DNA from: Octopus vulgaris | Taxonomy: Eukaryota | Reading direction: 5' to 3' | DNA: 64,000 nt | NCBI GenBank assembly: GCA_951406725.2 | Contig: OX597817.1 | Location: forward strand, 126,666,001-126,730,000 | Part shown: in pieces, positions 7,030-57,440 of the stretch | Position numbering within the stretch: position 1 is the stretch's first letter | Layout of the letters: every line of letters begins with the position of its first letter | Notes under the pieces: model-generated | Seen by the model: only the letters and a program-made list of their open reading frames with translations | Database searches by the model: none | What the model was told of the DNA's origin: nothing | Program-made: the position numbers and the translations under genes

Positions 7030-7619
7030 ATTAGTTTACACTGGCTAAAGGGCTTGATTGTACTCAGCTGTCTGTTGAAGATTGAAGACATCTCCACTTC
7101 ATTTTGTGCATATCAAAAAGAATATTTGCAAAACGAATCATTTACTATTTATTTAACCACTTCTAGATATTGAGAATGGAGTTCGATAATATAAAAAAAT
7201 ATTTTGCTTGCCATATGCAAAAAATTATAAGCTACATATTCCATGATTCTTTATACATTTTTTTCGCTTTTAATATTTCCTTACACATAAAAGAAGCTGA
7301 GAACCACTACATAACTGAATTAATAGCTATGTTTCTTTCATTCATTCTGTGGTGCACATTATTTTTCCCAAAAAAGTTTGTTCTTCCAAGAAATCGTTTG
7401 TCATAAATCTATTTCTTTTCCTTATCTGACGCTTAAATATTCTGTAATGTCATAGGTGTCGATTGAATATTCAAAGAATCGGTAGATATGAATACAATGG
7501 TGGTTGCAGAGAATTTTGGATCGTTCAACGAATATGGTTATTTTGTGGACTTAGGTTATATTTTCGATACCTAATGCTGGTATTGATAAACAATGTACAG
7601 CACATATAATTGTCAATGA
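7030..7619 (-). pseudogene. Terminal beta/gamma-crystallin-like segments
   Basis: CTLFINTSIRYRKYNLSP...LYSYLPI (cf. WVLYE.PNYRGRQY.LRP...SLRPI) and FNRQLSTIKPF (cf. FND.VSSIRP). Confidence 0.45.
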
Positions 7620-8029
7620 CTATTCAACAACAAATTTTATCAGAAGCCTGTGCTTTTGTTACATACATTTTTTTCTATTATTCTAGTGGCCATTTTCATT
7701 TCATTGAATCTAGCCAATGTAAACTAAACTATTCACGTATTCTTCTATAATATGCATTATCAGTCATGAATTCGTGTCGAGTAAACGCTTTCCGAAGCAA
7801 CTAAACGTTACCCTACAAACAATTTCAAACTTAAATTAGAAGACAATATACATTTTAAATTTAGTGTACACATATCAAGGATATGTTTAAAAACTTATTG
7901 AGGTTTAGATATTTTGTAAATTTAAACTCCATTAAAAAACTATAGCTCAGAATATACTTTCAGAGATGTTGCAAATTTGTCCATCTAATTGCATAAAGAA
8001 GGAAAATGTACATTTTATTTCTTTTACTT

Positions 8030-8805
8030 TTTCATCTATTAGACTGCGGGCATGCTGACCACCACCTTTCAAGATTTTTAGACGAATGAATCAACCCCTG
8101 TTACACGTCTTTTAAGCAAGGTACTTAGTCTATCGGTCTCTTTTATTGATCAAGCATGTTACGGGTTCGTAAACGTACCATTGCCGGTTGTCAATTGGTG
8201 GTGGGGGACAAGCACAAACGCAGACACACGCACACACAGACACATACATACACACACGCACGCACACACGAACGCACACATACACACACGTACATATATA
8301 TATATATATTAGAAGAAATGAGGTACTCAGAAGTTCGGATGGTTTTTATATTTACAGATATTTATTTGTATATTACATTTTTTTATACATCCTATAACTT
8401 AGATCATATATTAGCGCTTTCTCCCATTCTAGTGGGGTTTTCAAATGATCTTAGTTATATGATGTATAAAAAAATGTAATATACAAATAAATATCTGTAA
8501 ATATAAAACCATCCGAATTTCTGAGTACCTCATTTCTTCTAATATAAAATACCTGTACATCATCTCCAAACCTTCCAATATATATATATATATATATATA
8601 TATATATATATATATATATATATATATATATATATATATATATATATATATACGATGGCATTCCTTCAGTCACCGTCTACCAAATTCATTCACAAGGTTT
8701 TATTCAGCTTGAGACTACAGAAGATACTTGCCTAAGGTACCACGAAGTGGGACTGAACCCGCAACCAGGTGATTGAAAAGCAAGCTTCTTGCCACACAAC
8801 CACAC
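8030..8805 (-). mobile_element. SINE family A copy interrupted by a fold-back element and (TA)n
   Basis: Head at 8650-8805 and tail at 8030-8220 are reverse complements of 45072-45484. Confidence 0.8.
8305..8580. mobile_element. Fold-back (~100 bp arms) Penelope-like terminal-repeat remnant with variant hammerhead in the loop
   Basis: 8305-8400 is an inverted repeat of 8445-8545; minus-strand centre gatcat-TTGAAAA-cccca/tggg-GAAA-gcgc-TA-...atgatc. Confidence 0.65.
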
Positions 8806-9852
8806 CTTGGCTTGATCATTTGCAAACACTGAAGGGTGAGAGTTTTGGTAGCTATTCTCTACAAGTTGACTGATTCTTCAGTGTGTCAGTAGAAAGCTTT
8901 TGCCTTCCCGGCCCGAGGGCACATTCCTGCTTACTGCTATCGAGGCAGAGATGACTAATCTAGCACATCACCCTCATCCTTCAACACCATGGCTATTCCG
9001 TTTTGTCCGCTTTGATCATGAGGCTTACTCACAAGAAATCCTAAACTCATTACTCTATTCTACAAGGCACCTAGGGTTTTTAGTTTTGGAAATTTACTGT
9101 GGAAGAAAATTGCCAACGAATAATATTTCACTCGCTTCACCCTTCAAATAGCCCCCCTCTCTTCGTCTTTCTCTAACATTTGTATCTCCTTCTTCGCATC
9201 CTCCGTCTCACGCACTTGCAGTTTCCTATCGCCCCTATTTCTCATTGTTTAACCTTCTTCGCTATCTCACACTTTCTGCTTTATATCTTGTGAGCAGTTG
9301 GCTGAAATTAGAGGAAAATCCGTACATTGCTTCGGTGACGATATGACTCATAAAGTTTTTACTTATACATACATATATACACATCGACATATCACCATTA
9401 CCAGTATCAGATGCATGCGCTTCCATGTGTAATAAGGAAATTATTGTGACATGTTATCTGACTCTTTGAGTTCTTGATTCACACACAGGTGGGGATAAAC
9501 GTTTTCATTCATTTGTTGTTGATGATATCAAAATATTTAATGTATAAAATTGACTTTATTTGTTAAACATGTAGAATATTGAACCAATAGTTTATGTTAT
9601 AAAGATCGGTTGTTTAGAAGAATCAGTATTACATCAAAGGAAAACCATTACGTTATTAAGTTACAGCCCTTTGTACCTTGACATTACATTGATGTAGTCA
9701 CAATGAATTTTATACTTGTAAAGCTTCTTATGATATACTTATCAGAGACATAATAAAACAGATAAGGTAAGCTTCGCTATGATCTCCCCAATTGCAGCTC
9801 ACATGTAATAAAGCTAATAATTATGAATATGTTTGCATATATTATAATCAGA

Positions 9853-10263
9853 ATAGGCGCACGAGTGGTTGTGTAGTAAGTAGCTTGCTTATCACTACAA
9901 TGGTTCCGGGTTCATTCCCACTGCATGGCACCTTGGGCAAGTGTCTTCTGCTATAGCCTCGGGCCGACCAAAACCTTGTGAGTGGATTTGGTAGACGGAA
10001 ACGTAAAGAAGTCCGTCGTATATATGTATATATGTATGTATGTGTGTATAAGTTTGCGTGTCTGTGTTTGTCCCTCCAACATCGATTGACAACCGATGGT
10101 GGCGTGTTTACGTCCCCATAACCTAGCGGTTCGGCCAAACAGACCGATAAAATAAGTACTAATCTTCCAAAGAATAAGTCATGGGGTTGATCTGCTCCAC
10201 TAAAAGCGGTGCTCCAGCATGGTAGCAGTCACATGACTTAAACAAGTAATAGAGAAAAGAGAA
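9853..10263 (+). mobile_element. SINE family A, full length
   Basis: tRNA-like head (B-box ggttcattccc), internal TA/TG microsatellite, tail gcggtgctccagcatgg. Confidence 0.9.
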
Positions 10264-11545
10264 TATACTGGTGTATAGTAGGTTTATTCTAACTGAAAGC
10301 TGCAATCAACATTTCAAATCATGCTAACTAATCTTTTCCAAGCTTGTTCTTTCTTAACACGTTCCTTAGTGCACGCCAGTAAGAAAATACAGAAGTAGTT
10401 ATGTCATTTCTTCGGAAAGAATGGCTGTGCTACGGATTTCGAAATTATACAGAATCAAATAAGTGCATTGCTGTTATGAAACTTGAGATTTCTGTCAGAA
10501 ATATCTAAATGTAAATATAAGAACCATGCGATAATATGCATTTTGCAGTGATGTTATTACAGAAATAAAGACGGAATGTTTAGAGTATAATAGTTTTGAC
10601 ATGTCTGACGTTTAAGAGGTTTTTAAGACGTCTGTTCTGTATTTTCTGAACTTTATTATTATCTTGGTTTACACTAACCACTAAATAATGTAGGAAAATT
10701 AAACGCAACAAAAAGAAAACTCTGAAGTAAGTTCCTCTAAATATAAAACACACTAGGGAATACTTCCTAATAATATAACAGTTAAATTTATTTCTTAGCA
10801 TCATAAAGATATCATATGACAAGTAGCGTGTTTCATTATCTTGTATTTAAAAAAAACAACATAACCATCAAATATACTGCTTCCATCATATCTTGTATCT
10901 GGGGAGGATCATCACGGCAATAATCATAAAGTCAAACACTGGTTCAGCTTCCTTTGTTATGAGATGTGGAGATGTAGTGGTATGGTCACTTACAAAAGAA
11001 AAGGAAAGTTGCGAGTAACGGAAGTGTGTGTGTGTGCGCTTGTGTGTGCGTATAATTATGTGTGTACGTATGTGTCTGTGTGTTTGTGTGTGTGTGTTTG
11101 TTTGCGTTTGTATGTGTGTGTGTGTGAATGTGTGCATGTGTATGTGTGAGAAACTTTCAATCCAAATACGGAAGATCGTATAACTTATGGCTAAAATCGG
11201 AGAAAAATGTAATTAGTCACCGAGTAGAATATGAATAAGACATGAGGTTTGCCTATATGGTTGAGAATTAAATCATTTCACATCGAATATTTTCTATATG
11301 GTATCAAATTCAGAATAGTTGACAAAGGAAGTAAATATATATTTTCTCCTCCTATACCCACCGTATTCAGTTATTTTTATTATGAAATCTATTTGACAGA
11401 TATACTAAAGAATTAGCTCAGAGAAACATTGACTCTACTGATAACTGTAGAGTTCATTTAGGACCAAATATATTTCGGTAGAACGTATAATAGATATGAA
11501 ATATATAATACATATTAAATTTTCCAAATGGCTCTAACAATGTAC

Positions 11546-56149: not shown

Positions 56150-56227
56150 CAAGTGTTGTATGCTGCCCTCATCTTTGTCGGTATTGTAATGTCACCAAGG
56201 TCAAATGTGCCATTCATATATCGGAAT
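56150..56227 (-). pseudogene. Probable M12B domain exon remnant
   Basis: Acceptor ccatttcag, phase 2; FRYMNGTFDLGDITIPTKMRAAYN; phase-compatible with 57344-57440. Confidence 0.4.
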
Positions 56228-56329
56228 CTGAAATGGTAAATCCGACAAAGCTCACATATTTATGTGTACGAATGTAGGTTATAGAATGGCGTTAATCATT
56301 TCGTTAGATTTGCTAGCTCGAACTCATTT

Positions 56330-56510
56330 AATATTGGAGCAAGGCCAGCAATTTCAGGGGTGCCTGTAATTCGATTACATTGACCCCACTAATCAACTGG
56401 TACTTATTTTATCGATCCCTTAAAGAATGAAAGTCAAAGTCGACCTCGGCGGAATTTGAGACCAAATCATAAAGACGGACTAAATACCGCTATATATGTT
56501 CCCCAGCATG
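56330..56510 (-). mobile_element. SINE family B
   Basis: Reverse complement of the 40008/46283 family (tcaaattccgccgaggtcgactttg...ggggtcaatgtaatcga). Confidence 0.8.
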
Positions 56511-57343
56511 CTAAATGTGTTTGTGCAGAGGATGAGGATAATGTACTCAAATAAAGAAGAGTGGCAATCAGTGAAAACTGAATTACACGTTATAAAATTA
56601 ACGTTACAATCGCAAACAATTTTAGAGGTTAATTGAAAATGATAAATTTCCAATTTATTTGAAAATAAACAGTTTGAAGCGAAATAATTTTGCTCATTTA
56701 AAATAGAAATGAAAAGTTGATGAACTTAGAATATAAGGATAATTTCAAGAAGCCTTTTCCCTTGAATGTGTGACAAGGAACGTTGATGTATATCAATGCG
56801 AAGAGATGTATTAAATTTTGATTAATCTGAATTAAAGTATGACAAACAATTATGTTTTCAATTATGAGATGATAAACATCGGCAGAAATTTCATTGAAAA
56901 TTATATCTGCATGTTAATTTGTCTTTTCTCGGTAGGAGACAAATATGCATGCACACTTATATATCCATGAAAATGCGTATGTTCCCGTTTGCATATATGT
57001 ATATATATATATATATATATATATATATATATATATATACATATATGCGTGTGTTTATATATATATATATATAAAGACAATATCGGTATTCATGAAATAT
57101 AAGCTTTAAATGATTTAACGCACGAAGAGATATAGAATATGCCATATCAAATATAATATTCATTAGTTTGTTCAATGACTACAAATACATGCAACAACAG
57201 GAATATATTGTATAAATGTTTGATTAAAAATTTAGATTTCGAGTAAAAATAAATTTGATTTCTGTAATATTGCTTAAATGTTTTAAAAAAGTGATACCCG
57301 AAATAAAATTAAACGAAGAAGAAATGTACCAGCGTCCATTTAC

Positions 57344-57440
57344 TTGTACAGAAGGTAACATAAACAACTCTTTGCTACTATGACTAAAATGTGAACAAAT
57401 ATCGCGTCATGTAAGCGATATTTACTATATAGTCATAAAT
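57344..57440 (-). pseudogene. Probable first catalytic-domain exon remnant
   Basis: IFVHILVIV...LYK| (cf. Y.VEILVVVD...Y); donor aa|gtaaat. Confidence 0.4.

Follow-up and report, generated by a model that had tools for sequence, protein, structure and literature searches.

Probable remains of a decayed spliced gene that may once have linked a zinc protease with crystallin-type modules

This locus raises the question whether some 20 degraded peptide-like patches are the remains of a single spliced gene, and whether that gene joined an M12B metalloprotease to an array of beta/gamma-crystallin domains, as a first-pass annotation of the same 64,000 nt of DNA (the window) had proposed. The patches are present on the minus strand, at or near where they had been placed (Table 1), but only two of the ~20 rise above chance and beat the controls, a crystallin motif at ~30.7 kb and a PLAC-type pattern at 36.4 kb, with ~18/20 of the proposed segments failing every test. 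What the minus strand of the window probably preserves is a spliced animal gene in an advanced state of decay, which may once have fused a zinc protease with eye-lens-type binding modules. Support from the sequence extends to a dead spliced gene in which at least one crystallin exon follows a PLAC-like exon, and to old decay, whereas the M12B half of the proposal did not reach significance.

Table 1. Features of the window, in the reading direction of the minus strand
Feature	Positions	Strand	Basis
Proposed catalytic N-terminal exon	57330..57445	-	By eye; rank 182/665 and 28/737; candidate
Proposed catalytic exon, 59 stop-free codons, GC-rich	56059..56235	-	GC 0.38 vs flank 0.29; BLASTP to P0172 E=3.8; no Pfam match; candidate
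Proposed exon, G-x-Y-x-G-T-x-C-like motif	53070..53183	-	By eye; rank 274/674; candidate
Frameshifted SxxINE-like piece, resembling the sequence that immediately precedes the zinc motif of M12B	47067..47172	-	Zinc tile top on both strands, 1/631 and 1/755, within null maxima
Piece with the sole HE[LIVMF]xH of the minus strand at its end, directly before LINE copy	46932..46994	-	Acceptor 46,995 ranks 12/3847
Repeat copy; its 86% identical counterpart at 50,718-50,902 flanks a LINE-like piece	46734..46924	.	Self-BLAST
Best exon-like candidate of the window	45800..46013	-	Exon score rank 1 on minus; donor 7/4349; acceptor 25/3847; tile rank 5/762; chain not significant
Stop-free exon-like piece, cysteine spacing like catalytic-domain end and ADAMTS_CR_2 start	43263..43420	-	Acceptor 3/3847; rank 114/648; candidate
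High-copy interspersed repeat, covering the claimed 'ADAM Cys-rich 38.7'	38576..38950	.	In run X6, depth 644-2771 vs 50 and numerous loose ends; depth raised in X4, X8 and X13 too
Proposed Cys-rich pieces, near single-copy depth	38010..38180	-	Rank 315/668; candidate
PLAC-type six-cysteine exon, one in-frame stop (36,408-36,406)	36313..36447	-	Pattern match, single-copy depth
Possible crystallin-like piece	34210..34380	-	By eye; donor 357/4349; candidate
AG..GT exon, 177 nt, one stop, ending inside glycine codon of beta/gamma-crystallin hairpin motif	30680..30856	-	Best-supported piece
Near-intact LINE, reverse transcriptase, one frameshift, inside proposed crystallin region	25867..29897	+	ORFs; RVT_1 E=4.7e-30
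Weak crystallin-like piece	23363..23503	-	11.0 bits, within null
Crystallin-like piece with phase-1 donor	21131..21290	-	By eye; joint score 10.4, within null; donor 68/4349
Second-best crystallin-like piece	13870..13941	-	13.8 bits vs shuffle median 13.2, within null
Further proposed crystallin pieces (13.2, 10.7, 7.4, 7.1 kb)	7030..13263	-	By eye; none above null

The crystallin and PLAC-type exons

The Greek-key hairpin signature of beta/gamma-crystallins, with F/Y-x-G at its end, is found at 30,710-30,675 on the minus strand, in the form I-x-L-F-E-H-x-x-F-x-G. With a 316-domain profile this core was the top match on both strands (17.4 bits), a score reached by 0/200 sequence shuffles and 0/200 column-permuted profiles. 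The donor at 30,679 ranks 4/4349 among GT sites, and in a joint motif-plus-donor test it alone stood out, scoring 23.7 where 300 shuffles reached at most 18.2. A word search of proteins with the 30.8 kb exon gave six candidates, none scored.

Upstream on the same strand lies the PLAC-type exon, whose six-cysteine pattern has its sole match at 36,438, with none on the plus or reversed strands; the pattern, which was composed after the window was seen, occurs in 3/400 shuffles, and its uniqueness upholds the PLAC-like segment suggested earlier. Both positive tests, for crystallin and for PLAC, were designed after the window had been inspected. The CCxxC at 36.4 kb ranks 2/650 and was the only part scored by the PLAC profile, within the null, while Pfam PLAC itself gave no match. 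Kunitz is a weak rival match for this exon (E=0.066), and phmmer with the exon found 0 matches among 1.84 billion representative proteins.

The first-pass annotation had placed at least nine crystallin segments between 34.3 and 7.0 kb, of which one passes and the rest fall within the null. An array of at least nine is not demonstrated, since joint motif-plus-donor sites scoring ≥10 are no commoner on the minus strand (5, with 2 on the plus strand) than on the reversed strands (9 and 7). Self-BLAST and segment comparison found no mutual similarity among the proposed crystallin exons, a spliced repeat model was marginal and consisted mostly of micro-exons, and the best matches in an hmmsearch with a 26-domain crystallin profile were 5.3 and 5.2 bits. 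Single-sequence folds of pieces of the window reached pLDDT 53 and 49, the latter for the crystallin region. Beta/gamma-crystallins have the Ca2+-binding fingerprint (N/D)(N/D)xx(S/T)S; unlike members of the superfamily (AIM1, EDSP, the amphioxus Bf-bg proteins), with which it shares the hairpin motif at 30.7 kb, the window has only one demonstrated motif, and the two-motif domain and Ca2+ sites are unreadable in the decayed segments. As a further likeness, amphioxus crystallin genes carry an intron inside the motif, its exact position not being stated in the available part of PMC2929430.

The candidate protease half

An M12B identity of the pieces upstream of the PLAC exon is suggested by their position and order, which make it plausible, but it is not significant. 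No intact HExxHxxGxxH(D) occurs in the six frames of the window, and the catalytic segments claimed between 57.4 and 45.9 kb are at or within the null, the protease segments ranking 29-449 of ~650 with a bivalve profile. In four profiles the zinc tile placed its first or second minus-strand match at 47.15 kb. The best four-part zinc-motif chain, 47,146/46,950/46,000/45,921, was the same in 2/2 profiles tested this way (span 47,146-45,850), with scores that 18/120 and 36/120 permuted profiles, respectively, equalled; the zinc pair was matched by 22/150 shuffles and 39/90 permuted profiles. The HE[LIVMF]xH at 46,946, for which the chance expectation is 0.28 per strand, and a possible second half after the acceptor at 46,014 are not canonically spaced in the present sequence, and the place expected for the donor after HExxH is taken up by a repeat copy. 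The piece ending in this motif had not been separately named before. The best exon-like candidate contains, in different frames, pieces like the third-His region, the Met-turn and the W-x-x-S-x-C motif, and the candidate for a Met-turn followed by W/F-S-x-C-S (45,921-45,862) ranks 5/762, within the null. No candidate signal peptide or prodomain was put forward; these parts may fall outside the window or have decayed beyond recognition.

Beyond the catalytic domain, the 43.3 and 38.1 kb pieces that might represent ADAMTS_CR_2 rank 114-449 of ~650, and a BLASTP comparison of the former with the bivalve MIG-17-type protein P0172 (XP_034302725.1) matched another region (E=0.22). At 38,105 the window differs by an indel from three sister taxa. 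The claimed ADAM Cys-rich segment at 38.7 kb turned out to be repeat-derived and, being part of a multi-copy repeat, is unlikely to be such an exon.

HMM searches gave no support: Pfam Reprolysin, ADAMTS_CR_2, PLAC and Crystall had no match in 33/33 frame translations, nor in 6/6 natural ORFs over candidate exons, and custom M12B profiles remained at the null, with power largely lost beyond ~20% decay. Spliced frameshift-aware alignment with M12B profiles stayed at control level across the window; it recovered a gene planted as a control at 15% substitutions and 1.2% indels, and lost most of its power at ~22% and 2%. Searching the window by tblastn with 119 M12B/ADAMTS proteins gave nothing below E=0.08, PDB searches (phmmer, hmmsearch) with window pieces gave nothing informative, and the protein atlas was uninformative for the 45.9 kb ORF (recognition 1123, best 0.75). 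Exon-like AG..GT candidates were no commoner on the minus than on the plus or reversed strands. Rfam gave 0 matches, and so did a viral pattern search for the ADAMTS motif.

Three results were set aside. An M12B pair at 39,808-39,723 and 37,280-37,239 scored 37.7 in one profile (0/90 permuted), was absent in 4/4 other profiles and null in the spliced scan, and is thus profile-dependent; a look-alike at 31,568-31,500 (BLASTP E=0.023, one pair) was treated as chance; and a first frameshift-aware scan and first spliced model were discarded as confounded by composition.

Decay, copies and relatives

The decay looks real and old, since in three sister taxa there is no listed difference at the PLAC-exon stop (differences listed: 24/26 for contig 9 in run X4, 2/6 in X8). 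The sister-taxon contigs are ~1.8% different from the window, with 2 substitutions in the 135-nt PLAC exon. For 35,950-38,950 no RNA run was listed, which is uninformative as to expression. Stops or frameshifts occur in most segments and the GT donor at 30,679 is retained, as expected of an unprocessed pseudogene. Intact paralogs elsewhere, which the first-pass annotation had considered possible, did not come to light, as the PLAC exon was single-copy at ≥82% likeness in four runs and protein searches were blank. M12B domains were present in 0/120 of the long crystallin proteins listed, and crystallin domains in 0/119 long M12B proteins. No M12B-crystallin fusion was described in the literature titles and abstracts searched, which cover subscription journals thinly; nine supplementary text files of PMC7656900 contained 0 'crystall' matches, and PMC7518263 only an irrelevant reference match.

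Judged by its proposed domain order, the locus would be closest to the MIG-17 type, which lacks TSP1, and less close to ADAMTS proper. C. elegans MIG-17 is given as pro-MP-DI-PLAC in the available part of PMC4856095, and the molluscan proteins P0172, which the protein atlas places beside MIG-17, and P0177 (KAH3839212.1) have Reprolysin and ADAMTS_CR_2 without TSP1, followed by CCxxC modules. This layout, lacking TSP1 and spacer and running from catalytic domain through ADAMTS_CR_2 to PLAC/CCxxC, fits the order proposed for the window, and bivalve members exchange their C-terminal modules; however, no fetched member has crystallin domains, the similarity of the window pieces is not significant, and the locus is dead. 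With ADAMTS proteins (ADAMTS6/7/9/20) the window shares PLAC-type cysteine spacing at 36.4 kb and the SxxINE-like piece before the zinc motif, but reading of the window frames, as opposed to a dedicated scan, noticed no TSP1 or spacer piece, nor did the first-pass annotation propose one, and a crystallin tail is foreign to that family. The available text of the ADAMTS review PMC4349717 has 0 occurrences of 'crystallin', in agreement with the earlier statement that ADAMTS proteases lack such ancillary domains. The other precedent invoked, a crystallin-fold domain on the bacterial mucinase StcE, is likewise borne out, as crystallin-type domains of the StcE C-terminus and of RbmC M1M2 bind mucin (PMC10102183, seen in part). 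Database proteins also include metalloprotease-crystallin fusions, namely P0024 (astacin) and P0069 (M6). These cases resemble the proposed gene in their mucin-binding crystallin-type modules or in joining a zinc protease to crystallin modules, but they belong to other protease families and lack introns, and are analogous rather than homologous.

Competing readings and a possible origin

Our preferred reading, unproven and held with slightly less than even confidence, is that of a dead gene for a MIG-17-type protease that carried a crystallin tail. It is favoured because the crystallin and PLAC pieces share a strand and lie 5.7 kb apart in the proposed order, and because the best zinc-motif chain is ~10 kb upstream of the PLAC piece on the same strand, between top-ranked splice sites. 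The shortness of the 5.7 kb gap argues against two neighbouring dead genes on one strand, the first for a MIG-17-type protease with PLAC at its end and the second for a distinct protein with crystallin domains, as do the PLAC frame, which continues stop-free for ~10 more codons up to a GT, and the extra C-terminal modules (SEA-like, transmembrane) that bivalve relatives carry after CCxxC repeats. We consider two genes quite unlikely, even though PLAC is terminal in MIG-17 and in 11 ADAMTS proteins (PMC4856095 and PMC4349717, available portions), the protein sets above contain no fusion, and no spliced joint from 36.4 to 30.8 kb was seen in data covering 35,950-38,950. That only the PLAC-like and/or crystallin remnant is real, with the 'protease' pieces being chance look-alikes in AT-rich, repeat-rich DNA, is unlikely; it would agree with all M12B tests lying at or near the null and with equally good look-alikes elsewhere (39.8/37.3 kb, 31.5 kb) that vanish on a change of profile, but less well with the recurrence of the zinc tile at 47.15 kb, the two complementary halves 150 nt apart and the strong splice sites around the next piece.

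Pattern-matching on noise throughout, with no gene remnant at all, would fit the failure of most segments, the absence of a strand excess of exon-like segments and the many profile and parameter settings tried, which inflate the best p-values. We judge it decidedly unlikely, as two independent rare patterns (~0.02 per strand each in shuffles) occur once each, close together on the same strand, one of them ending exactly on a top-ranked donor. An intact gene with stops and frameshifts introduced by assembly errors is scarcely credible and largely refuted: the 4-kb LINE in the window has one frameshift only, contigs of three other taxa match at ~98%, the stop of the PLAC exon not being among the changes listed, and lesions are dense in nearly all segments, although this sequence comparison rests on other taxa rather than on raw reads of the window's organism.

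If the preferred reading, the protease gene with a crystallin tail, is correct, the locus would be a minus-strand pseudogene, old and unprocessed, and its pieces would have formed a single transcript. The ancestor would have been a secreted MIG-17-type (thrombospondin-less) M12B zinc protease, laid out as protease, Cys-rich domain, PLAC-like module and one or more beta/gamma-crystallin domains. By analogy with StcE and RbmC, the crystallin domains would most likely have been target-binding modules, holding the protease on mucus or matrix glycoproteins. The death of the gene would long predate the divergence of the sister taxa sampled, and stops, frameshifts and LINE/SINE insertions would have accumulated since.

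A protease-crystallin fusion in an animal M12B protein would be new, and is an unproven idea that we rate a little short of an even chance. If real, it would give animal M12B proteases a further kind of ancillary domain, the crystallin module, and would extend the beta/gamma-crystallin domains to a mollusc-like genome, such genes having not yet been found in molluscs according to the available part of a 2010 survey (PMC2929430). More broadly, molluscs, probably cephalopods, may have evolved an undescribed secreted MIG-17-type protease family with a long beta/gamma-crystallin array, an animal counterpart of StcE, of which this locus would be a 50-kb fossil with living members unannotated in other species; we regard this as somewhat unlikely. 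As it stands, the locus is dead and has no known living member, so that it offers a target for searches but no new system. In octopus the posterior salivary glands express M12B genes, and since these genes have been lost in some lineages (PMC7656900, available portion), the fossil could record such a loss.

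Candidate crystallin and PLAC-like exons

Three-frame reading did find degraded patches at the places named in the first-pass annotation, which had proposed a dead minus-strand gene of about 50 kb with M12B protease, Cys-rich and PLAC regions and at least nine crystallin segments. An intact HExxHxxGxxH was absent from every frame of the window, and the Pfam search for the expected families gave no match among 33 translations of 11 loci or six natural ORFs. Fifteen of the 20 proposed segments were GC-richer than their own flanks, the segments having been chosen for their complex look, and there was no minus-strand excess of exon-like AG..GT candidates, with 18, 10, 6 and 2 at scores of ≥14, ≥16, ≥18 and ≥20, versus 24, 7, 3 and 0 on the plus strand and 21, 11, 3 and 1, and 18, 11, 4 and 3, on the reversed strands. 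Many profile and parameter settings were tried, and every p-value is post hoc.

The crystallin motif at 30.7 kb is very probably a genuine exon. A frameshift-aware scan with a profile of 316 real crystallin domains placed its best match on both strands at 30,710-30,675 (minus; 17.4 bits), a score reached for the motif-1 core by none of 200 sequence shuffles and none of 200 column-permuted profiles (maximum 15.2), while for the full-domain model the top of 30 shuffles was 16.9. The donor closing the motif ranked 4 of 4349, and the joint motif-plus-donor score, in a test modelled on this site itself, was 23.7 versus ≤18.2 in 300 shuffles, with no other site in the window passing. The next-best pieces, at 13.9 kb (13.8 bits) and 23.4 kb (11.0 bits), were inside the null, and no similarity was detected among the proposed crystallin exons. 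A spliced crystallin repeat model slightly exceeded controls (17.9 vs 13.7; 30.7 vs 29.8) via micro-exons, with planted controls at 22% decay scoring 19-88. One motif of the proposed array is demonstrated, but nine are not, and an array of at least nine segments is unlikely.

The PLAC-like exon at 36.4 kb is probably genuine. It carries C-x7-C-x7-C-x8-CC-x2-C at 36,438 (minus) in a single frame with one stop, with a Cys spacing similar to that of ADAMTS7 PLAC domains. This pattern, composed only after inspecting the window, had no other match on either strand, none on the reversed sequence, and occurred in 3 of 400 shuffles. A PLAC profile picked up the CCxxC alone (14.3, inside the null), a PDB search offered a weak Kunitz alternative (E=0.066), and phmmer against 1,835,955,588 representative proteins gave no match at E ≤0.001.

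The proposed protease half

By eye, the pieces in the window match the domain order of the bivalve M12B proteins P0172 and P0177, but they fail to stand out in tests. With 119 M12B proteins, gathered starting from a giant-virus ADAM-like protein, the lowest tblastn E in the window was 0.08, on the plus strand; spliced alignments were no better than controls, and the proposed segments ranked 29-449 of about 650. This blank is only partly informative, because a planted oyster-type gene was detected at 15% substitutions and mostly missed at 22%. For the zinc tile, the piece at 47.15 kb was the first or second minus-strand match in four profiles, and lay outside the top three placements of the bivalve-only and ADAMTS9/20 profiles. 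A complementary HExxH piece, truncated by a repeat copy, lies 150 nt beyond it. The top four-part zinc chain was 47,146/46,950/46,000/45,921 in both profiles used, and was equalled by 18/120 and 36/120 permuted profiles. A chain of ordered tiles exceeded 40/40 shuffles, and the plus and reversed strands only barely, using places other than the zinc pieces (39.8 and 37.3 kb).

The minus-strand pair at these places, 39,808-39,723 and 37,280-37,239, resembled ADAMTS catalytic domains over their N-terminal half (37.7 bits and 0/90 permuted, with one profile). Its order clashes with the 47 kb zinc pieces. It was rejected as profile-dependent, being absent with four other profiles, which indicates that look-alikes arise cheaply in this window. 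An ungapped 23-residue resemblance to the ADAMTS pre-zinc stretch at 31,568-31,500 (minus; 8/23 identical, E=0.023 for one pair) falls within the proposed crystallin region.

We lean towards the presence of an M12B remnant. M12B membership of the locus is not established, the zinc motif being wanting, and on current evidence it is not an ADAMTS proper. That the protease, PLAC and crystallin pieces all formed one gene is a tentative reading, at slightly under even chances. The original observation is partly confirmed, and its interpretation as a fossil protease-crystallin gene partly supported.

Repeat setting and age of decay

The window is AT-rich (GC 0.26-0.42), with abundant microsatellites and transposon pieces, and 39,106 bases were left after repeat masking.

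Candidate exons and repeat features of the window
Feature	Position	Strand	Evidence
Candidate crystallin exon	30,680-30,856	-	
Candidate PLAC-like exon	36,313-36,447	-	
LINE, near-intact (1000-aa and 349-aa ORFs, one frameshift)	25,867-29,897	+	ORFs, Pfam, self-BLAST
Second copy, same LINE family	1,602-4,433	-	75% identity to plus copy over 2.9 kb
3′ end fragment, same LINE family	22,145-22,384		
Further RT piece	17.2 kb		
PIF1-like helicase fragment, presumably Helitron-derived	5,012-5,434	+	E=5e-24
Degraded ORF, presumably mariner/Tc1 transposase-like	16,283-17,011	-	No Pfam match at E 0.01
Degraded ORF, presumably mariner/Tc1 transposase-like	1,390-1,742	+	No Pfam match at E 0.01
Degraded ORF, presumably mariner/Tc1 transposase-like	62,651-63,013	+	No Pfam match at E 0.01
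Inverted repeat flanking microsatellite	8,310-8,541		Arms 86%
Inverted repeat flanking microsatellite	52,397-52,892		Arms 94%
Inverted repeat flanking microsatellite	60,088-60,667		Arms 81%

The region 35,950-38,950 was found in 15 of 24 listed sequencing runs under four organism labels, none recorded as RNA. The Cys-rich exon proposed at 38.7 kb was struck out because 38,576-38,950 is a repeat (13-55x single-copy depth in run X6, with many loose ends). Contigs of four runs placed sister taxa B and C about 1.8% divergent from the window, and an indel at 38,105 distinguishes taxa. The PLAC-like exon had single-copy depth and two substitutions, one residue-changing and one silent by hand reading of codons; no change at its stop was among the listed differences (24 of 26 for the X4 contig). 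Decay this heavy, set beside a divergence of 1.8%, suggests that the gene was already dead well before the taxa separated. In X13, a run guessed to be RNA, the sole long difference-free contig (157 nt, 37,187-37,343) coincides in part with an AG..GT candidate of raised GC content (37,315-37,158), where B and C carry 18 extra bases; this contig could be DNA carry-over.

Proposed working and known relatives

The product may have been a secreted MIG-17-type protease, lengthened by crystallin modules that would grip a target surface. [quoted passage not shown] Alternatively, the modules may have given Ca2+-dependent stabilisation, by analogy with amphioxus and Ciona crystallins (excerpt of PMC2929430). 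The posterior salivary gland of octopods expresses M12B genes, which some lineages have lost (PMC7656900); a link of this locus to that expression or loss is speculation.

No M12B-crystallin fusion was found in the literature searched, among the best 120 of 222 long crystallin matches, or among 119 long M12B matches, the latter two word-limited and weak evidence of absence. Among the 119 M12B proteins, the bivalve P0172 (XP_034302725.1) and P0177 (KAH3839212.1) combine Reprolysin, ADAMTS_CR_2 and CCxxC repeats without TSP1. A protein atlas sets P0172 next to MIG-17 (0.94), with no crystallin-bearing cluster seen. These two and the bivalve P0178 and P0242 share Reprolysin, ADAMTS_CR_2, CCxxC repeats, a Thr-rich linker, a SEA-like domain and a hydrophobic segment, possibly a membrane-anchored MIG-17-type architecture. 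A giant-virus contig (L033:754-3000, minus) encodes an ADAM-like protein whose zinc motif is intact and whose Cys-rich region is disintegrin-like; it has two database relatives at 53-55% identity. In the metagenome or transcript contigs L002, L014 and L019, a crystallin motif is joined to repeat-rich and beta-rich C-terminal regions.
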